A stretch of 64,000 nucleotides of DNA from Fimicolochytrium jonesii (taxonomy: Eukaryota): contig NW_026515668.1 of the NCBI RefSeq assembly GCF_025526975.1, forward strand, positions 868,001 to 932,000. Direction: 5' to 3'. The translations under genes were made by a program, and so were the position numbers. The notes beneath the pieces are model-generated. The model did no database searches, had not been told where the DNA came from, and was given only the letters and a program-made list of their open reading frames with translations. Of the stretch, positions 19,731 to 64,000 are shown piece by piece. Positions within the stretch are counted from its first letter, which is position 1, and each line of letters begins with the position of its first letter.

Positions 19731-19777
19731 CCGGTTAGGGCTAGGTGTTACTAACCCTAATCCTAACCCTAACCCTG
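19731..19777. repeat. Head-to-head telomere-like repeats (GGTTAGGGCTAGG / CTAACCCTAATCCTAACCCTAACCC)
   Basis: Directly visible, ~230 bp upstream of the uL22m ATG. Confidence 0.85.
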
Positions 19778-42099: not shown

Positions 42100-43623
42100 T
42101 GAGGACATGCACGACATTGCAAACCGTCTTGATGTGGCCCTCAACGGCGCTCGCCCCGACTACGTAGGGCCTTCGGCCACCGCCCCATGTTTGCTTCTTC
42201 GTCCACCCCTAAACCCCTGCCCGCGCTCCCCGCCCCGGCCAACCCCTGGCCGTTGAAACGAGGCGCGGCCGTCCAGCAGATCAAGGCGGAACCACAACTC
42301 AAACGACCGCGGCTGATGGTACCACGACTGACCCCAGAGGAGCGCGACCGTTGCATGCCGGAACGGCCTCTGTTTACGGTGCCGCCAACCCGGACATCTC
42401 GCCGCGCAGCGCCCGACATCCAACAAATTGAAACGGACGCACCTCCGACGCCAGGGGCGGCTGGCGGCGCCATGGTCCTCCACCCTGACCGCGAAGCTCA
42501 AGTGGATTTTTAGAGGGTCCCGGGGCGACGACCACGCCACTGGGACCCTACCAAGGTCGCCCACCCGACACCGCTTCGGGCCCGCCCAAGAGACGACGCC
42601 CGCAAGCCCACCGCGATGACGAGCTCAGGCCCCCGAAACGCGTGCGCTTCGTAAACCATACAACTGTCCGCTACTTTGAGAAACACCGACCTCCACACTC
42701 CCGGTCGCCGCGGACCATATCCAACGAAACCTCAGAACCTCTTTCCATCGAACCCCCTCCGCGCTCAGAACCCTACGAACCTCCCGTTGACAACGAACCA
42801 CCCGAACCCCTTTCCATTCAACCACGATCCCTGGGACACTCTGAACCTACCACTGATTCCCCTACGCCGAAACCCCCGCACAAAGACAAACCACAATTCC
42901 TCGAACACTCTGAACCTACCACTGAATCCCCGACGTCCACATGTGGGTCCACAACCCTAACCCGGTTAGGGTTACCAACCCTAATCCCCAACCTCACAAC
43001 CCTAGCCCGGGTAGGGTTACCAACCCTGATCCCCAACTTCACAACCCTAACCCGGTGATAACCCTAATCCCCAACAAACCACAATTCCTCGAACACTCCG
43101 AACCAACCACTGAACCCCCGACGTTCACACCCCGCACATACAGTAGACGCCACAACCATCATGGACCCCCGAGAGCCCCAGGACCCGTCGCCGTCGCAGC
43201 CGCGCAAACCTCGCGCAATCTCTGATTCACGGCTACAACCACAGACGACTGCAAGAGTACGACTTGAAGATACAATACCTCCCCGGAGAGACGAACACGC
43301 TCGCGGACTTGCTATCCCGTCGGCCAGACTATGCTCCTCGCTGTGTCAAGTGCCAGTCGCGGGCACAAGTCGAAACTTCCTCCATCGTTCTCAACACCAG
43401 CACCGATCTGCACCAGGAAGTGAAGACCCTCCTCGAAACGGACGACTACGGCCATAAGATCCTCGCCGCCCTGGCTCTTCCGGAGGCCAGGCGATCCCAG
43501 CACGAACCCCGATTTCATACGTCCGACGGGTTGCTATACTACGACAACCGCCTATACATCCCGAAAGGACCCCTGCGTGATCAACTCCTCTTCGACGCCC
43601 ACGCAGCCGACGCGGCAGGATGA
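42100..43623 (+). mobile_element. Degenerate Ty3/Gypsy gag-pol fragments with internal repeats
   Basis: LQEYDLKIQYLPGETNTLADLLSRRPDY..GLLYYDNRLYIP..LFDAH (RNase H/integrase junction), plus tandem repeats at 42830-43125. Confidence 0.75.
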
Positions 43624-52356: not shown

Positions 52357-53129
52357 GGTTGCAGACGAAAGGTGAGGGGGGAAGGTGGAGTAGTGATGGG
52401 TGAAAGACGCTGAACGACGCTATGCTATGCTAGACTGCGACTGCTGTTCTATGAAACAGTGAGTGGGGAGCGGGTGAGGGGATAGAAAACGGCGCATGGG
52501 AAGAGAGTGAGTGCAGTGATGGCGAAACACCTGCGGCGATTTATACGACTTGTAATGTGGGCGGCACCAACGCTTTTTTTTGAGTGCGTCTATCCAGCGA
52601 CACACGACGCATCCCCGAATAAGTAATAAGTTTATCTTCCAGAGGTTAACGAATGAAAGCACCGGCAGCTGCAGGCTTGGAGCGGCCTGGAATGTCCATT
52701 TTAGATGGATGCTATCTTATGTCCATTTTAGATGGATACTATCTTTGGCATTTTATTCAAGCTCATTGTCCACTTCGAAGACAAAGACGCTCTCCGACAG
52801 ATTATGACAGCGCGTACCTGCAAGGGAACTGAGATGTCATTCCGGTTCCTTTGGAAATACAGTACACACAGAGGCGTGTGATTGGCTGGCTGGCTAGATG
52901 TCCTGGCCAGATTATTCTGCATGGAGGCGTGTGATTGGCCGGATTTTCTTGCGGAGGGGTCTTGATCTGGTCGGTTGCGTTTGAGTATCAAGGCGTCGCG
53001 GATCGTGGGATCGATGAAAGCAATCGATGTCAGCGTGGTCGTTAAACGGGATGCGGTGAATGGGCTCCGGTGTCAGATGGGCGAACTGGCGAGTGGTTTT
53101 TTCTCGACAACAACACTGGCCGCAGCATC

Positions 53130-53183
53130 TTAGGGTTAGGGCTAGGGTTAGGGCTAGGGCTAGGGTTAGGGCTAGGGTTAGGG
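53130..53183 (+). repeat. Interstitial telomeric array: 9 hexamers, mixed TTAGGG/CTAGGG
   Basis: Directly counted; it sits inside one copy of a local duplication. Confidence 0.95.
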
Positions 53184-53619
53184 TTGTATTGTCAGGAATC
53201 GTTGCCAATTTCACAGGGCGTCTTCAGAGTTGTCACTCTACAGTCGTCGCTCTGTGCTCTGGACGATGGGCGCACTCAACACTGGCCGCAGCATCTTTGC
53301 ATTACCAGGTATCGTTGCCAATTTCACAGGGCGTCGCCAGAGTTGTCACTCTACAGTTATCGCTCATCTTGCCGGAAATAAGTGGCCAGAAGTCTGGTTA
53401 CCTCGCCTGTCAATAGTGTCATTCTGTGACATAAGCGCCTGTCAATTTGTCGGAGGGATATTTTTCTCCAAAGAATGCCGATTAAGGAAGCCCCGCAGAC
53501 ATACAGGCACAGCGAGCAAATATCGTTTGGCGCACCACAGTTTGAGAGAGCTCCAGAAGATACGGAGATCCAGTCAAAGCCACTAAGCCAACTCCCACAC
53601 AAACCACAAACTGCCCACC

Positions 53620-54832
53620 ATGTCCGTCGCCATGGGCAGCACCCTCTCCGGCAGCCTGCACACCTCCGCGCACCCCGCCGGGGCCTCCAGCAGCCCCAAA
53701 GCCGCCATGACGGGCCCGCAGCTCGGTCCTCGCCCCGCCTACCTCCGCCACAGCAACCCCAACCTCCGCGGCGGCATCCCGCGCGAGAGCGTCTACGCCC
53801 TCATCGAGCGCGAGGTGGAGCAGGAAGCCAAGCCGCCCCGTTATACGAGCATCTATGCGGAACGGGTGAAGCATGAGTTTGGCGGGAAGAAAAGCGCGGC
53901 TAGTATGGGGCCTGCGGAGGTGCCGAGGCCGGATCCGGAACGGTGGTTGAGGAAGGGGGAGAGGGAGAGGGGGTGGAAGAGTGTTGTGAAGGGTAAGGAA
54001 CTGGGGATTGGATGCTGCTGGGTTTGATTGCGTTTGAGACTGGAGGACTGATTTGATGGGAATATCTTTTGTTTTGCAGTGGAGCCAAATCGCCCGGACT
54101 GGACAAAGCTGAAAGCACCGCTTCCGGACGCCCCGGGCATCATCCCTCGTCCGACGAAGAAGGATTTCATCAAAATCAACGCATTGGACCAAATCAACTC
54201 CAGTAAGGAAACACAACCATATACTTGATGCTTTCCCCTCCGTCAATCCTAACCAGCATGTGCCTAACCATCCATTGCAGGCGCAAAACAACCACCCCGC
54301 CCACCCCCCGCCTACCGCACCAAAAAGGACTACGGCCTCGTGCCCGCCTACCTCACCCCCAGCGACCCCAAACCGCACGCCCCACACGTCGAAAAAGTGC
54401 AGCACATCCAATCGCACCTCAAAAACACGCGGTTCCACCACCACCGCGTGCGTCTCGCGGACGAGCGCGATAATGAGAGCAGTGAAGGGCTTGTGCCGTT
54501 GCCGACGGAAGAGCGGGAGAAGATCTTGGAGGGGTTGAAGGAGCAGTGGAAACGGTTGAATGGGGAGTATCAGAGGTTGAGCTTGACAGTGGATACTGTG
54601 CCGAAGATTGCAAGGTGGGGTTGGAATAAGGGTGTCCATGGGATCTTTTTTGATGATCACGGATTTTTTTTCTGATGCGGGTGATGTGATTCGCAGGAAA
54701 GTGAACATGGAACAGCAACTCCGTCTCCTGGAGAGCAACATCCAGAAGTTCACGCACCCAAAGATTCTTGTTGCGTTCGACGACGTTTACGAGCCTGCGC
54801 TGCCATCTTCGCAAACGGCGCTGCATGCATGA
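53620..54832 (+). CDS. ENKUR: Enkurin (flagellar microtubule inner protein)
   Basis: ESVYALI..KPPRYTSIY..MGPAEVPRPDP, KKDFIKINA, KKDYGLVPAYL, and EEREKILEGLKEQW..YQRLSLTVDTVPK..RKVNMEQQL. Confidence 0.9.
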
Positions 54833-55810
54833 TCTCCACATCATTAACCAAGAAGAAAGGACTCGGGTGGGATCGAACGTATCAATCGTTCGCGGTGCCT
54901 GATGCAAACTGGATGGAGAGTTTTGGAGCGAAAGAAGGGGTGTGTTGGAGTCCCGAGTGGGATTGGACATTGACGTGTGTTTCGGGCGTGTTCCTACATC
55001 TTTACACTTGTACGCTACCATCAATCATATGCGTGATTTTCTTTTCGAAGTGGCGGCTGGGAGTCGTGCGTGGGAGTGACATTATTGTTAAGATAGGATG
55101 TAGGGGTTTTCTGAGATGCATCCTGAGTACGACGGATTGTTGAGCCTCCCTGTGCAACCTGGGAGTCACTGGCCAGAAACCCAGAAGTCACTGGTCAGAA
55201 ACCCAGAAGTAACCGGCCAGCTGTCAGTCTTGCCGTGGGCTAGCGATCCTGCTTGAAAGGGTTTGCGAGGTGTCGGTAACTTGGGCCGATGGCCCTGGTT
55301 GGGATGATGTGTCCGTCGGGCGTCGTAGCCAAATCTCTAGCAGCTTACTAGCCTACTGTAATGCGGACACCAGAGCTCATCAAAGCAATCGATTTTTGGG
55401 TCGGGAGGGCGTCGATGGACGCGATGTTGGGCGTCGATGTTGTCGGGAGGCGCACCAGATCGGCCCGACGGGAAGAAAAGGGGCCCACCGGACGGGGAAG
55501 AGGTTACGATTCTTTCACAGGACAAAACAGTAGGTGGCCAGATATCCGGGTGAATGCCAAGTCCCGCTAGTCCCACACGTCAATTTGCCGCAACGGACAG
55601 CTGTTGTGCAACAGATCGCAGAATCGATGACTTTTGCGCGTTGGGACGGCATCGGTGTGTAAAGAGTGCAATCTGCCGATGGGCGTCCATATGTGCGGGG
55701 GTACGGTACAACAGACTGGGACATGCATGCGGGGCGGAGGGAAGACAGACCAGACAGTACAGTAGCGAGCTTGGGAAGACTGCCAAGGAGGATTCGAGCG
55801 GCACCTCACT

Positions 55811-55855
55811 TCTAACCATAGCCCTAACCCTAACCCTAGCCCTAGCCCTAACCCC
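55811..55855 (-). repeat. Interstitial telomeric array (CCCTAA/CCCTAG) ~100 bp upstream of AP-3 sigma ATG
   Basis: Directly visible. Confidence 0.9.
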
Positions 55856-55951
55856 AAGTGCATGGGCATCGCGGAAGGCTGTTACTCGCGACTTCTGAAC
55901 CCACTTCTGATCCCAACCAGCATCAACTTTACAGGAAAAAGAAAAGCAAAT

Positions 55952-57024
55952 ATGCTCAAGGCCGTAATGATATTTAATAACCACGGGAAGGTGCGTCCTA
56001 CGTTTGTTTGCCCGCCACTTTGCTTCTGAGACTCGCTGAGCCAACTTGAACCAACTGACCTTCCATCTTGCCTTGCAGCCACGGCTCATGCAGTGGTATC
56101 AACAGATGGTATGAGTGGTATCTCTTTATCGCTAGTGATGACCAGATTCAAGCTTACTCTACGCTCTCTCAAAAGGATGTCAAGGTTCAACAGGAAATGT
56201 TGAAGGAAATCTTCCGCCTTGTCAACAAACGGTAGGTCTGGATGCATTCCGAAGACCCTCACGATGGCCGGGACGACTTGGAAGCGGTGTATGTGTGAGC
56301 TGATACTCATGACTTCGAATCGGATAGGCCAGATCATGTGTGCAACTTTCTGGAGGGGAGTGAACTTATTGGCGGCCAGGACACGAAGATAATATATAGG
56401 GTGAGACGAAAGAGTCACATTCGTTGGAAAACGGGCTATCGACTGACTGGTGGCGACGATCTCTCTTCATAGCACTATGCAAGTGAGTATACGGCGACAT
56501 CAGGACATAGCCCGGAATGACATACGTTGCTAATCTAGGAACCAGCGTTGTACTTCGCTTTCGTTGTGGACTCCTCTGAGAGCGAGCTAGGTAAGGAGCT
56601 AGAATGCGTTGTTAGGGTGAAGAATAGCAAGGACACTGCTGACTGATCTCTCTCAGGCATCCTTGATCTGATACAAGTCTTTGTGGAGGCATTGGATAGG
56701 ATATTCTCCAACGTTTGCGAACTGGATTTGATTTTCAGGCCCGATGAGGTACGGTCAGAGATTCATCATCGGACAGGTCTTTATCGGCGTCCTCATCTGC
56801 TTCGCTTCTGCTGCAGGTCTCGCAACTGCTTTCAGAGGTTATTTCGGGAGGGATGGTAAGGTGGTCGATTTGCACACCGGCGTTCCGCTCAGGATGTGTA
56901 CTCCAAAGCTCTTTGCGAGCAGAAAGTTGATCTCCTTTCCTTTCCGACCTTGCAGGTACTGGAGACCAACATCACGGACATCGTTGCATCCGCTGGGATC
57001 AAAAAGATTACATCCGCCAGATGA
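55952..57024 (+). CDS. APS3: AP-3 adaptor complex sigma subunit
   Basis: Spliced MLKAVMIFNNHGK|PRL.., VCNFLEG, IIYR|HYAT|LYFAFVVDSSESELG|ILDLIQVFVEALD..NVCELDLIF, GGM|VLETN; ~9 small exons. Confidence 0.93.
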
Positions 57025-57299
57025 TCCGGACCCACCGTAGGGTGCCTCTCCGTGCGTGGGGTTGCAAGAAGGGCCTGCCCAGGTGTTGGACGAGATGGAT
57101 TGGTTGACGATCAGTTTGGATTGGATAGAACTGCCCTGCCGGGGAGGAAGCTGCGTACTATCCGATGTAACGACCTTCACTACAGGCGCCAAGTGCCGGG
57201 TCGAAAGATGTTCGGGCGGTAACACGGCATAAGAGGGGCTACGCGTTGTGAACCTTTCATATCCGACTAGCAGGGCTCATTCGACAATGTCTGCAGACC

Positions 57300-57430
57300 G
57301 CATCCATGCGTGTCAAAGAGGAATGGTAGGGTAAATTCCGCAAAGGACGCTGGGCAGTTGCGGTACATAAGCCCAGACGGCCCGTCTGACTGTTACCATT
57401 CGGACAACCTGCGCATGAACCTCGGAAGCC
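57300..57430 (-). ncRNA. Candidate Fanzor omegaRNA scaffold
   Basis: Nested inverted repeats downstream of the Fanzor stop: CATGCG/CGCATG, TGTC/GACA, GAATGGTA/TACCATTC, CTGGGC/GCCCAG, CAGACGG/CCGTCTG, CCGCAA/TTGCGG. Confidence 0.4.
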
Positions 57431-57890
57431 TCTATTACTTCCATTATGCCGTGTATCCCCGCTGATGTCAGGACTCGGGACTCAAGGAAGCTGTCTCATC
57501 AGCTTCCAAGTTAGGTTCTGTCGAAGCTCGGCTGGAGTCACTCTCAGGGAGGCTCATCGAGAACATGGCGCCCCTTTCCTTCCCTCTCTCTCGCTTGCGT
57601 TGGCAAGCATCGACTGTGCATACAGTACTTGTCAGCGCCCTCCCGCCCGCCCCTGCGCTGTATTGTATTGTATTCTTTGTCGTGTGGGTTTGCCCACGAC
57701 GCTAATTACAACGCCTACTTCCACCACTCTTCGTACATGTTGTTGCGAGCGCCGGAGTCTAGACCCCCACAGCCTTTTCATCATCCAGAGATACGCAAGT
57801 TGCCATCATCGGCGACGCCTCAGGCAGAGGTACAATGATGTGGATGGCAGATAACCACCACGGAAAATGGGATGGGGTGAGGATTCTAGA

Positions 57891-58816
57891 CTACCTACGG
57901 TTACGGGAGAATGCGTCTGGTCTGCGGCCATTGCCAAACACCACCGAACGCACAATCGAGAGGAAATTCTTGGTGCTTAGGACGTCCCGATTGTGCACTC
58001 TCATCCGTAGTGGTCGTCTTCCAGGAATCTCAAATGGCGTCCAGTCTTGGTTGATACATTCGGGGTTGGGGCAACCCACCAATCCATGGACGAATTCCAT
58101 TCTTCCCTTTTGAGCTTGCCGCGGCCGAGGTGACAGCCGGCGTCAGATGTTTTTCTTCACACGCCCGTGGCAGTCTGGGCACACGGAAGACGTTCGATAC
58201 TCATCTAGCAAGTAGCATGGGATGCTGTTTCTTGCAAAGAGTGTGCGGAATCTGATTTCCATGATGATGAGTTAGCATATTAAAATACATAAAAAACAAT
58301 GATGGTCACTCACCCCTTGGTGTTTGATGACTCCTGAAAGCGCATGGTTTTTCCAGCGTCGCTCCAATCACCCAAGATGACCGCAAAATGCTTTCCATAC
58401 AGGCGTCGCATGTTCTTGATGAGCTTGGTCTCAGACTTTTGCCGCAGTGAGAACGCCTTGAATCTGTGAGCTACGTGAATCGCATTCTGGTAAAACTCAT
58501 CCAGGGCGGGATCTGGGATATGGATGGATGTCAGCCCATGTGTTACCAAAGTTGAAAATCAAAGTTGAAGTAGAACATCATACACGCATGTCAGTGATCC
58601 ACAATGAACGCTGAGAACGCCTCGATTTTCATGCTCTAGTGCGATGGAATATGTGATTCCATCTCAGCGATGCCGGCATTGATCTTTCGCTCCGTCATAT
58701 CTCTCCGAAAGTAACGAGACTTTGTCTTGACCGCCCGTTGATTGGATGTGTATCTGATGGGGTGGTGCATTCTGAGATTACTACTGCCCTGCTATCCCCG
58801 CTATCCCCGCTATCCC

Positions 58817-58847
<31 letters not shown>

Positions 58848-61027
58848 ATTCCCGCTGTCCCCGCTGTCGCCGCTATCCCCGCTGTTGCCGCTGTTGCCGC
58901 TGTCGCCGCTATCCCCGCTGTCCCCGCTGTCCCCGCTGTTGCCGCTATCCCCGCTGTCGCCGCTATCCCCGCTGTCGCCGCTATCCCCGCTGTCGCCGCT
59001 ATCCCCGCTGTCCCGATATCCCGCTGTCCTTGCTGTCGCCGCTGTCCCCGCTGTCACCGTTATCCCCGCTGTCCCGCTATCCCGCTGTCGCCGCTATCCC
59101 CGCTGTCCCGCTATCCCGCTGTCCCCACTGTCGCCGCTGTCCCGCTATCCCGCTGTCCCCGCTGTCGCCGCTGTCCCCATTGGCGCCCTCCTCAACCGTC
59201 CCCGTCCCCGTGCCCACGATCCCCTTCGTTCGACAGACATTCCGCAATCAGCTGAAATGTACCTAAATGGCCGCTCCTTCTTGATGTCTCGACAGAACAA
59301 GAGGTCACGCTTGCCCAGATCAATGCTGACGATGTTTGGAGCCTCCCTTAGTACGGCGATGTGGTGCTCAAAATACAGCTGTTTGACTTCTTCCTGCATT
59401 TGGGCTTTGCTGCGCTTCCGGGCGCGATGGCCGTACTTGAGCCCTGGCTTCTTGAAGTGGATGGTAGCGGAATACCCGTTTGTGCTGATTGACCCATCAA
59501 ATTTGAGACCAAGCTTCTTTCAATGCTTGAAGACCTTGTCCTGCAATCCGTCATTCAGCGAGGTGAGGTGAGTGAAATAAGCGCAGAGGGATAGAGACTT
59601 ACATTCACGTTGAGAAACTGCCCCCACAGCTCCCGCTTGCGTTGATCGGTGAGTTTCCCCATGCGATGGCAGCCCAAGGCCAGGATATGAGTGGTTAGGA
59701 TCTTCGTGTCGATCCAAACAGATGACTGGATTCGAGATTTGCGCAGCGGGATAGCGGAAAACAGCCGCATTCCACGGCGCTCATAGAGGCATGAGAGCTC
59801 ACAATAGGCACCTGTGATGAGGCGAGGCAGGTGCGGACCATGATTAGACAAAAGAGGAACCCGCGGGGAGGGGGGGGCCGGAAATATACTAACTCACCTA
59901 AATATGGCATTGCGTCCACCGCAAGGCTGTATGCAAACGGTTCATCCTGGGGAGGAAACAGAGCCCATAACTCGTCGAGGACAGTCCGCTCAAGTCGTGT
60001 GAGGCGGGCAAACTCCTCTTCGGTTGGAAATCTCTTCAAATGTCGCATACTTTGTAAACTGACGGACACGCCGATAATAGCGTCGCCGCTGCGCTCGGTT
60101 GACTCCGGCACGGAGATGCAGTACGACTTGCTTCAAACCAAGCCTTTCATTGACGTAGCGCAGAAGCATTTGCATGAAATGCTCTTTTACGTTAACTTTG
60201 AGGTTTGTGAGGATGCTCGTAGCCGTGTACGCTGCGGTCTGTTGGCAATTTCGCATGCGGATGGGGGCGAATCCGTGAACATCACAGTAGTCTTGAACCC
60301 ACAGACGCAACTCTTGCGCGATGACTGGATTGCCATTGTAGCCTGGATTGTTTAGCAGCTCAAATATCACACTGATGTGCTTGTCGGTGATGTCCGGGAA
60401 ATCGTGTAGAGGATGATCAGCTGCGGTCAGCAGAGCAGACGTAACAGTCAGGACATTGTTTTATGGCAAATATACAGTGCACCTCAAAAACTCACCAAGG
60501 TAGTACTTGAGAAAGAAGGTGGTGTGGCGCGCAAGGATGTGAACATTGCCGATGAACGTTGTCAGGCGCTCCCTTTGAGCTTGATTTTGATTATGGATTC
60601 GGTGAAGCAAAACCTTGGTGCTGGCATGTGTTTGCGGGCTGGGTCGTTGAACTGGTGGTGGTGGCGGGGGCTCAAGCACCAGGGATCCACCCGGTGTGCT
60701 GGGAAAAAGGAAAGGGATGGGAGCGGGGAGGTTCAACGGGCGCTGCAGACCCCTGTCCGCGGTTGAAAGCCCTCTCTGCGGCTGCTGCTGCTGCCCGTCT
60801 TCATCGCCGGAGCTCTCGCCAACCATGTCTGCAATTGCTTGGGGCAAGTGGCGTTGGACCGAAGGTGGGAACTCGAATTGCGGGGGTTGCAATGGTGTGG
60901 CTGGCAGACGTATGGGCAACCGCAGGGTAACCGGAGTAACCTTCCTCCTCTTCCGCCGCCGTGGTGTGGTTACTCCGGTAAAGATGCCACACCACAGGTG
61001 CCCCTGGAGCGCCTGGTGTGATGACAT
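57891..61027 (-). pseudogene. Fanzor1 (eukaryotic TnpB-like RNA-guided RuvC endonuclease), six introns, inactivated
   Basis: RuvC-I SIDLGKRD; VILGDWS..KG|FRTLF; RuvC-II LLDEYRTSSVCPDC; Zn finger VHGLVGCPNPEC; RuvC-III HNRDVLS. Also TNLKVNVKEHFMQMLLRYVN and FSAIPLRKS..IDT. Four in-frame stops and one frameshift. Confidence 0.92.
58788..59180. repeat. 9-bp-unit minisatellite (CCGCTRTCS) within Fanzor intron 4
   Basis: About 40 tandem units between the GT donor at 59262 and the AG acceptor at 58754 (minus strand). Confidence 0.95.
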
Positions 61028-61239
61028 GATGGCTGTGCTGTGCCTTAAGCCAGCCGAGACGGGTGTTGCAGGTGATTGCCGTGAAGCGTAAGGGGAGAGC
61101 GCGAAGAGTGAGGAAGAGTACGTAGAGTGAGGATCCCCACGTTTTTTATTTACACACGTGTAAAGGATGTGGGGTAGCTTCCAGGGCAGCTAGCTGGGCA
61201 GCTAGGGTACGTAGCTTCTGAGGTTGATTCTAGCTCCTC

Positions 61240-64000
61240 CCACTCCGCCACTTGGCCCCCAATGAACTCGACGAGCTACGGCAGCAACTCGAGCGCCTAT
61301 CATCCCGCAGGTGGATCTCCCACTCAAGAGCCCCTGGGGGGCACCCGTGCTGTTTGCCCCGAAGAAGGACGGTGGCCTCCGCTGCTGCACCGACTACCGG
61401 GCCTTCAACAAGATGACCCATAAGGACGCCACGCCCTTCCCGAACCTCAACGTGCTTCGGGACCGCTTCGTCGGCATGAAGGGCTTCACCGCTATCGACA
61501 TCCGTGATGCCTACCACTGCATCCTCATTCGGGAGGAAGACCGCAAGAAGACTGCCTTCCGGACGCGCTTCGGCCACTTCCAGTACAACGTATTACCCTT
61601 TGGGCTGATGAACGCGCCCGCGACGTTCCAACGCCTCACGAACAAACTCCAGGGCGACAAGTACGATTCATACCTCATCTCTTACCTCGATGACATCCTT
61701 ATTTTCAGCCCCGACATGGACTCACACATCGGGCATGTCACCGAAGTGCTCAAGACCCTCTCGGCTCACCGCCTCCACGTGAAACCGTCCAAATGTCAGT
61801 GGGCAGTGGACCAGGTTGAGTTCTGCGGGCACGTGGTCGGTAAGGACGGCCTTTCCATCGCCCCGTCCAAGGTCGAGGCTGTCCGCGCTTGACCCGAACC
61901 CACCAGCGCCCTTGAGCTCCTCTCCTTCATGGGGCAAATCAACTATGTCAAGGAATACATTCCGCATTATGCTGACACCGCCCTCCCACTGACCAACCTT
62001 CAATCCGGCACCCGCCCGTGGCAGTGGGGCGCCAAGGAACAAGCAGCATTTGACAGCATCAAGGCGCGCGTCGCCGATGCCCCTTGCCTGGCGTTCTTCG
62101 ACCCCGATAAGTTCCCCTACGTCTTCTCTGACGCGTCAGGCTTCGCCGTAGGGGGCTGGATCAGTCAGGCCACGGACGGCGACTTTCCCATGCCGAATCC
62201 ACTGCCCACCACGAAAAAGGGCCTCAATGACCTTCCGCGCCTCTGCGTCATCTCATATGACTCACGCAAGATGGCTCCGGCCGAAACCCGATACCCCGTG
62301 CACGAACAGGAGCTCCTCGCATTGGTCAAAGTGATCCGCGCTAACCGCCACTACCTCATCGGTCGCCAATTCCGTGCATTGGTCGACCACAAATCCCTCA
62401 TATACCTCCAGAATCAGCCTCATCTCTCCCGGCGCCAGGCCGGATGGGTGGAGTTCCTTCAGGACTACGACTTCAATATCGAATACCTCCCCGGCGAGTT
62501 CAATCGCATCGCCGACATACTCAGGCACCCCGCTGTACGCCCTGAAGTGCGCCAGCTGTCAGATGAAGGTCGAAGTGTTCTCCATTGTCACCGGGACACC
62601 TCTACCGGACATCACTGGCCGCCTCCCTACCGACGCCGAGTGGCTCACTGCGCTCGACGATGACAAGTTCTGCAAGGACACCCTCGCCCACCTGCAGACC
62701 ACCGCAACGAACCCCGATGACCCCTCTACCCTCTCGGGTTTTGCCCGCCGCCTCACGCGCGACGACCGCGGCTTCCTTTTGTACCATGGCCGCCGCTACG
62801 TCCCCAAGGGCCTTCGGGGCCCCCTCCTCAGGTTCTATCACGACTCCCTGGCCAACGGCGGCGACTCGGGTGTCCAGCGCACCGTCGCCAAACTCCTCGC
62901 GCTCTACTACTGTCCCCGCCTCGAGCGCAAGGTCCACCATTATGTCCGGACTTGTCCCGACTGCCAACGCAACAAGCAGGCTTCCAACTTCGGGCGCCTA
63001 CGCAGCATTCCGGTCCCCAACGAGCGCTGGCGTTGCGTTGGCTTGGACATCTACTTCCCCACGACGAACTCTAAGGGGGGGGAAGCGGGAGACGAGTCCG
63101 TCATGGACAAGGGAGCCGTCCTCATCCTGGTGGACTACTTATCCAGCCGCGTAATCCTCCTCGAGACCCACCCCAAGGCGACGGCAAAGGAACTCGCCCA
63201 GCTGTTCTTCGACCAGGCCTTCCGCATCACGGGCATGCCCCACACAATCATCAGCGATCGGGACACCAAATGGACCGGCGCCTTTTGGAAGCACCTTCTG
63301 AAGTGCGCCGGCGTAGAGCAGGAACTCTCGTCGGCACGCCACCAACAGACCGACGGCAAGACGGAGAACGTCATCAAGACAATCAAGAAGATGATGGTCC
63401 CCTACCTGAACTACACCGGCTCAAACTGGCGCGAGATGCTTCCCCTCCTCGAGTACAACTACAACAGGACGCCCCAGACCTCCACGGGCATGTCCCCGTA
63501 CGAGATCGACATCGGGTACATCCCAAAGGTACCAGACCAATGGGGACCAGCGACCCAACAGAGCAACTGAAACAGGCCGATCGAAAGTGCATTGAGGAGC
63601 GCATGCAGCAACTGACCGAGGTGAGCCGCATCGTTCAGCACAGACTCCGAGAGGCCCAGGACAGGCAGGCAAGATACTACAACAGGAACAAGAATACGGA
63701 CGCGTTCGTAGTAGGCGACCAGGTCCTGCTGAACCGCGAAGGCATCCAGATCAAGAGTATCTCGGCCCGAAACAAGAAGCTGTCCGCGCTATGGATCGGG
63801 CCCTTCAACGTCAGCAGAAAAAGGCCCCACCCGGACACCTACGAGCTGGAGCTCTCCCACGAGTTCAGTGGACTACACCCGGTGTTCCACGTCAACATCC
63901 TACGCAGGTACAACCCTCCGGAGAACGGCCCATACCGAAAAGTGGACGCACCACCCCCCCCGGAGGAAGTCAGCAGCAAACTCGAACACCGAGTTAAAGA
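61240..64000 (+). mobile_element. Ty3/Gypsy (Tf2/chromovirus-like) pol: RT-RNaseH-integrase, 5'-truncated and degenerate, runs off the window
   Basis: SPWGAPVLF..KKDG, PFGLMNAPATFQ, YLDD, SDASG, HEQELLA, DHKSL, SDRD, HQQTDGKTE, WIGPF, HPVFHV. Stops at 61890-61892 and 63568-63570; frameshift at ~62525. Confidence 0.95.

Follow-up and report, generated by a model that had tools for sequence, protein, structure and literature searches.

The 64,000-nt window analysed here, from the Spizellomycetales chytrid Fimicolochytrium jonesii, carries on its minus strand a Fanzor1 gene that has lost its reading frame. Our reading, which we hold to be very probable, is that the gene belongs to the SpuFz1 clade, has six introns and is broken, that it is one of many copies of what was likely a non-autonomous DNA transposon, and that it likely decayed under methylation.

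Gene structure of the window copy

The six GT-AG introns proposed in the preliminary description were all borne out in position and length, as was its claim of a continuous reconstruction, which reads in frame 0 from the ATG at 61027 to ~60030 and continues in frame 1 as far as the stop at 57891-57893. The spliced read-through of the window copy comprises 756 aa in seven exons:

60496..61027, minus strand: exon 1, with the ATG, a Pro/Gln-rich extension, the NLS-like motif PRRRKRRKV and the start of the WED/REC core
60421..60495, minus strand: intron 1, 75 nt, GT-AG
59898..60420, minus strand: exon 2, REC domain, with a +1 frameshift at ~60031
59812..59897, minus strand: intron 2, 86 nt
59603..59811, minus strand: exon 3, REC/WED
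59541..59602, minus strand: intron 3, 62 nt
59263..59540, minus strand: exon 4, WED and RuvC-I, with a stop at 59520-22 and the catalytic D at 59321-19
58754..59262, minus strand: intron 4, 509 nt, with a 9-bp minisatellite
58584..58753, minus strand: exon 5, with stops at 58636-38 and 58591-93 and its last base altered (D571Y)
58513..58583, minus strand: intron 5, 71 nt
58314..58512, minus strand: exon 6, RuvC, with the GDWSDAG block
58252..58313, minus strand: intron 6, 62 nt
57891..58251, minus strand: exon 7, with the catalytic E at 58202-00, the C4 zinc site, a stop at 58143-45, W681R, the catalytic D at 57986-84 and the terminal stop

Junction 13-mers of the six introns are contiguous in 17, 15, 20, 23, 23 and 17, respectively, of 41 predicted paralogue gene models, many of them partial (seven models found later stand outside this count), and the full-length paralogue P0031 aligns without breaks to the single-exon SpuFz1. 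Together, these observations place the gene structure far beyond chance. The paralogue models P0004, P0009, P0014, P0016 and P0020 read into sequence matching introns 1–5, that of intron 5 being read into by P0004 and P0016. Since the models read into identical intron sequences, other copies appear to retain the introns, which would fit spread at the DNA level rather than by retro-copying.

Intron 4 is long (509 nt, vs 62–86 nt in the other five) because a 9-bp minisatellite of 44 copies, at 58787-59178, makes up most of it. Its inner part appears inverted relative to P0020, whose sense strand matches the opposite strand of 59156-59263 (local search, E 6e-8), and in paralogue P0033 the repeat is oriented as in the window. 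Both ends of the intron form an imperfect inverted repeat. Intron 4 may be orientation-polymorphic, either as a small nested TIR element or through an inversion.

Identity as a Fanzor1

Exon pieces match the SpuFz1 chain (PDB 8GKH) independently of one another, with E-values of 2.8e-14 for exon 2, 4.1e-14 for exon 4 and 5.9e-27 for exon 7, and exon 7 also matches PpFz1 (E 2e-11). P0031 (XP_052925929.1, 761 aa), which covers the whole read-through at 86.6% identity, aligns to 8GKH over residues 129-759 with E 4.6e-149. Single-sequence AlphaFold gave a pLDDT of 34, and a fold of P0031 based on a 60-sequence alignment was used instead (pLDDT 82; residues 1-125 below 50, core mostly above 90). The best fold matches of this model were SpuFz1 (E 4e-51, TM 0.90 by target), PpFz1 (E 2e-30) and GtFz1, followed by Cas12f and TnpB; it shows the WED/REC/RuvC/TNB arrangement and groups with Fanzor1, as the fold of a paralogue rather than of the window copy itself. 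The motif D-X(125,275)-[TS]-[TS]-X-X-C4 zinc finger-X(5,50)-RD, by which Bao and Jurka (2013) define Fanzor1 (PMC3627910), is found in the read-through as D, TSSVC, CxxC, CxxxxC and NRD, interrupted by stops, and equivalents of SpuFz1 D383, E541 and D606, the RuvC triad, are present by alignment. The exon matches, the P0031 alignment, the fold and the tree described below thus agree with the earlier assignment to a Fanzor1 close to SpuFz1.

The preliminary description had made this assignment depend on a match to TnpB/Fanzor profiles. Pfam indeed gave no significant TnpB/Fanzor family in nine exon pieces or in ten full or partial homologues, including full-length P0031 (best score Cas12f1-like_TNB, E 0.072), but this test is weak, and the identity is established by the matches to PDB sequences and folds. 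Many paralogues carry a precomputed PF26935 tag.

The Pro-rich N-terminal extension with its NLS-like motif was likewise confirmed: ~128–134 aa precede the core, PRRRKRRKV occurs in 15 of the 41 paralogue models, and elsewhere in the 60-sequence alignment no other row has more than 46 aa before the core.

The Fimicolochytrium jonesii family

Database searches returned 48 F. jonesii gene models on 28 contigs, all labelled 'uncharacterized'; the loci are fewer than 48, since some may be split into two models. The best models are 81–92% identical to the window read-through and none is identical. In a tree of 35 rows, made from selected long sequences, the window copy groups with eight F. jonesii models with 100/100 support, on a long stem (0.63 changes per site) with short, star-like tips. 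Chytrid and soil-metagenome Fanzor1s, including an S. punctatus protein, are the neighbours of the family. The 64-kb window holds no second copy of the element or of its flanks, and a metagenome scan with paralogue P0013 found no close copy (0/91 candidates). A viral context was rejected: viral contigs gave only five distant loci at 21–27% identity, and the neighbours of the gene in the window are host-type (clathrin adaptor small chain and enkurin).

All five catalytic and zinc motifs are kept in 10 of the 41 paralogue models, among which P0031 is the sole full-length one. Relative to the family majority, P0031 is changed at 20 columns; one of these changes, T659K, falls in the defining [TS]-[TS] motif, at a position where 50/56 homologues have T. 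P0013 shows nine differences, in a model that lacks the first 195 aa. On these sequences, a surviving active copy in the family is possible. The earlier suggestion that intact paralogues may be new programmable nucleases was, nevertheless, overstated, as the only full-length model is altered at a conserved site. Similarly overstated was the view that mining based on open reading frames would miss the gene: although the family is absent from two published tables (see below), its paralogues are already RefSeq gene models and within reach of protein mining.

One F. jonesii model, P0037, joins a tyrosine-recombinase-like N-terminus (Pfam Phage_integrase, E 5.6e-4) to a Fanzor fragment. This arrangement, seen in that model only, probably arose when annotation fused the fragment with a DIRS- or Crypton-like element next to it.

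A candidate omegaRNA downstream of the gene

57840..57868, minus strand: candidate omegaRNA 5′ end and first stem-loop, with the motif and spacing of the SpuFz1 and PpFz1 guides

Starting 24 nt past the stop, the sequence reads TTTTCCG, followed after 6 nt by a complementary stem around a TTATC loop (57868-57840). The published SpuFz1 and PpFz1 omegaRNAs start with an identical motif and spacing, according to the Saito 2023 supplement (PMC10432273), and the ends of SPu-1 and SPu-2 are described with the motif and stem-loop too (PMC3627910); the first stem-loop is reported as the conserved part of Fanzor1 omegaRNAs (PMC11423790). The combination also occurs in loci L014 and L018 (2/41 loci), while in L007 the corresponding position after the stop is occupied by TTTTTCCG and another hairpin. 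It occurs once in the window, with 0.13 and 0.65 occurrences expected for two patterns chosen post hoc, so only its position is informative. The hairpin is present in all five folds of the candidate region, whose folding has only a modest advantage over shuffled sequences (z -0.87 to -2.06). The stretch 57864-57823 is matched by the tail of P0033 and is therefore common to another copy. Rfam gave no hits in 56000-62000, and MAFFT on five 3′ regions yielded no useful alignment. From the motif and its placement, an omegaRNA start near 57868 is predicted as likely.

Retention of this first stem-loop raises the alternative that the locus, although its protein is dead, still donates guide RNA in the manner of the ghost Spu-1 elements, its omegaRNA loading the protein of another copy. 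Ghost omegaRNAs are reported to work with SpuFz1 (PMC10432273), and the 10 models with all five motifs would be the candidate partners. However, compared with the TTATCG loop, that of the window copy carries one additional base, a truncated Gypsy element adjoins the upstream region, and an intact protein copy is so far hypothetical. We regard continued guide donation as unlikely, though well short of far-fetched.

Candidate element ends, possible carrier and neighbourhood

57765..57780, no strand: weak candidate right inverted repeat, matching 61159-61174 at 14/16 nt
61135..61174, no strand: weak candidate left end, formed by a hairpin (z -1.83) and the left repeat arm
61237..64000, plus strand: neighbouring Ty3/Gypsy pol, 5′-truncated at ~61237-61240 (homology to Gypsy relatives starts at 61234-61240), with Pfam RVT_1, RT_RNaseH, Integrase_H2C2 and SH3_Tf2-1

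No terminal inverted repeats of the SPu-1 type (~30 nt, with TA duplication and CA upstream) were found in 57300-61400. The 14/16 match of the candidate repeat was equalled by 8 of 300 shuffles and 22 of 300 random pairs; TA precedes the left arm, and no clean TA follows the right arm. The earlier statement that no transposase is adjacent holds for the flanks scanned, 53001-57900 and 61001-64000.

These ends also bear on whether the carrier was a Helitron2-type rolling-circle element instead of a Spu-1-like TIR/TA element. Non-autonomous Helitron2 elements are described with short asymmetric inverted repeats (ATIRs), one at a 5′ hairpin and one 20-30 bp from the 3′ end, before a hairpin, and with ends in common with an autonomous Helitron2 (PMC3627910). 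The left arm lies within the hairpin at 61135-61174, and past the right arm there is a short palindrome, an arrangement suggestive of such ends; the missing clean TA after the right arm points the same way. On the other hand, the candidate repeat is statistically weak, TA does precede the left arm, the closest characterised relative resides in a TIR/TA element and, at locus L013, 135-nt inverted repeats surround a related gene. A Helitron2 carrier seems to us unlikely on balance.

The left flank of the Fanzor copy is bounded by the truncated Gypsy, whose pol is frameshifted and whose RT is 72–84% identical to Powellomyces hirtus proteins. We rejected the idea that the Fanzor element split this Gypsy in two by inserting into it, as 53001-57900, beyond the gene, contains no gag or protease match. 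Another Gypsy-like fragment is located near 43250. On the 3′ side, the closest host gene is an intron-containing clathrin adaptor small-chain gene (56000-57100, plus strand; Pfam Clat_adaptor_s, E 5e-9). Telomere-like TTAGGG arrays at 53130-53365 and 55164-55857, ~2.6 kb apart in inverted orientation and with short duplications adjacent, flank an enkurin-like gene, and further telomere-like arrays occur at 19751, 22805 and 42950.

Residues that contact the target motif

Mapped by eye on the P0031/8GKH alignment, the equivalents of SpuFz1 Q129, Q130 and Y345 are kept in the family, and that of N133 is A. The REC loop is shortened at SpuFz1 R96, with no basic residue there in 20 of the 21 models covering the loop. 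The arginine equivalent to R96 in GtFz1 is R85, and R85A is reported to abolish GtFz1 activity (PMC11423790). Given the absent R96 equivalent and the A at N133, a family protein, if active, would likely recognize a TAM other than CATA. Moreover, since the REC-loop arginine essential in GtFz1 is absent from the family, a copy free of lesions might itself have little or no activity.

This absence, together with T659K in P0031, the most complete model, could indicate that the whole family was catalytically or DNA-binding dead before it spread, with the gene as passive cargo of a mobile element. The Phlyctochytrium relatives, however, also lack the arginine, and an S. punctatus orthologue with K at the R96 position has a reported TAM (PMC10432273). 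In addition, along the long stem branch the family majority has retained the triad, the zinc site and almost every near-invariant Fanzor1 residue, which argues for selection until the burst. Death of the whole family before its spread is quite improbable in our judgement.

Lesions and decay

Pseudogenization, as first described, was confirmed: after splicing, the gene contains one frameshift (an extra base at ~60031), and the only stops are the four listed above. A functional Fanzor1 gene calls for an open reading frame, which the window copy lacks even when spliced, and it cannot make the full protein.

The RuvC and zinc sites had been considered intact. The three acidic residues and the CxxC/CxxxxC cysteines are indeed present, but the active-site motif is damaged, its IDLG being a mutated DPG; the proline is L in the window copy and P in 27/30 paralogues and 52/56 outside homologues. 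W681, conserved in 19/19 paralogues, is R in the window copy. In the alignment of P0031 with 8GKH, it corresponds to SpuFz1 W570, reported to stack on omegaRNA U5 (PMC10432273). A tryptophan predicted to bind the guide RNA thus appears lost, and the damage exceeds that listed in the preliminary description. In D571Y, the altered base is the one preceding the intron 5 donor. The change of TDG to TNG in the WED domain (N in 22/27 family rows, D in 54/56 outside) might be taken for a lesion of the whole family; we rejected this, since N is also found in Gaertneriomyces and P0036.

The window copy departs from the family majority at 27 of 665 well-defined columns. Twelve of these 27 private changes fit a CpG transition, vs 4–10% expected under uniform models (P 4e-6 or less); among the 18 private transitions, the same 12 compare with 12% expected. 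Three of the 12 CpG calls have an alternative non-CpG codon. Of the four stops, two can be explained by CGA to TGA and a third is a transversion, while the fourth falls at a variable site; stop sites are open in the paralogues (R 24/24, K 25/28 and R 16/18). Counted against methylation decay, bulk CpG depletion is slight, with an observed/expected ratio of 0.91 in the coding sequence and 0.94 in the window. 5mC in Spizellomyces is reported to be confined to transposons (PMC12695648). We infer that the window copy likely decayed under cytosine methylation. That the lesions are assembly errors or recoding and the copy is functional is scarcely credible: a single-base insertion is a typical long-read error, but against this stand four stops, of two kinds, where the paralogues are open, missense changes at conserved positions and a CpG bias not expected from errors.

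Proposed function of the ancestral element

In the ancestor of this copy, the transcript would have been spliced to encode a protein of ~760 aa, and the N-terminal NLS on its disordered tail would have directed nuclear import. The protein would bind an omegaRNA from the 3′ end of the element, starting near 57868, whose last bases would be flanking DNA and serve as the guide. By cutting matching empty sites next to a TAM, it could favour retention or re-copying of the element, with a transposase presumably acting in trans.

We also entertain, as a speculation that is probably wrong in at least some of its parts, a wider scenario in which the family acquired its six introns and the disordered tail of 130 aa, rewired its reader of the target motif through loss of the REC-loop arginine and replacement of N133, and burst to at least 30 copies, one or a few of them still active with a new TAM and armed with varied guides from the dead copies, the window copy among these. 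SpuFz1 is among the best-characterised eukaryotic programmable nucleases, and a 42%-identical family with changed TAM contacts could, therefore, plausibly yield an editor with a different target range. It also provides, in a chytrid, a case of a transposon-borne nuclease with apparent intron gain and CpG-biased decay. The window locus itself is dead and leaves the understanding of how Fanzors work unchanged.

Comparison with known systems

Fanzors that are intron-rich and bear an NLS had been presented as notable. Both features are present here, but both are already published (PMC10530073, PMC3627910). Jiang Data S1 (3,655 rows) and eight Saito files, with cells covered up to 400 characters, contain no match to a 9-mer specific to the family, and a control motif in these tables returned only SpuFz1-like rows among the matches listed. 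Judged by titles, the open literature on Fimicolochytrium and on chytrid Fanzors yielded no description of the family. It is, apparently, unlisted in these two published Fanzor tables and may be listed elsewhere.

Close relatives of the family include Gaertneriomyces semiglobifer P0051 (54% over 250 aa), Phlyctochytrium arcticum P0041 (39%) and loci L006-L010, which belong to the same clade. The notion that all close relatives are intronless was rejected, as the metagenomic relatives L006, L007, L009 and L010 carry GT-AG introns; one position is common to all four and absent from the F. jonesii family. Conversely, where L006, L007, L009, L010 and L011 cover the six family intron positions, they show no insertion or break (ten metagenomic loci examined of 36 fetched). 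From these alignments, the simplest reading would be that the lineage of the family gained its introns within a clade in which introns are both gained and lost. L007:1245-3100 and L008 hold a close relative, a Fanzor1 gene with two introns that is followed, past its stop, by an omegaRNA-like start and that may be intact. At L013:293-3152, a related Fanzor1 gene lies between inverted repeats that are 89% complementary, apparently a complete element.

Multi-exon genes like those of the family are described for Chlamydomonas Fanzor1 (CRe-1, 2, 3/CrFNuc, in Helitron2) and for the intron-rich Fanzors of Jiang 2023; together, these are reported to have 5–10 exons and up to ~9.6 introns per kb (PMC10530073, PMC3627910). 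According to the same accounts, these Fanzors are also amplified with their introns in non-autonomous DNA elements and have an N-terminal NLS on a disordered tail. They differ from the family, however, in host kingdom and subclade. PpFz1 of Parasitella parasitica (PDB 9CF0-9CF3) shares the Fanzor1 fold and the motif and spacing of the first omegaRNA stem, at ~20% identity, and has an FRI insertion that is missing from the family by length and alignment.

SpuFz1 and its element SPu-1 (PDB 8GKH, 9CEU-9CEZ; PMC10432273, PMC3627910) have a fold and domain order in common with the family, at ~42% identity over the core. The D383/E541/D606 equivalents, the zinc site, Q129/Q130 and Y345 are shared with SpuFz1, and the omegaRNA-like TTTTCCG and stem-loop after the stop, the many copies, the lack of an internal transposase and the Gypsy neighbour with SPu-1; for Spu-1, PMC10432273 reports Gypsy insertions in Fanzor loci and no enclosed transposase. 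In contrast to SPu-1 and SPu-2, which have one exon (PMC3627910), and to the ~630-aa reading frame of SPu-1, the window gene has seven exons, six introns and ~756 aa. Before the core, the family has ~134 aa vs ~20 in SpuFz1. The N385 equivalent is G, that of R96 is absent, that of N133 is A, the 30-nt terminal inverted repeats are missing and the window copy is broken. The window thus holds a real but dead copy of an ordinary, apparently unlisted Fanzor1 family.
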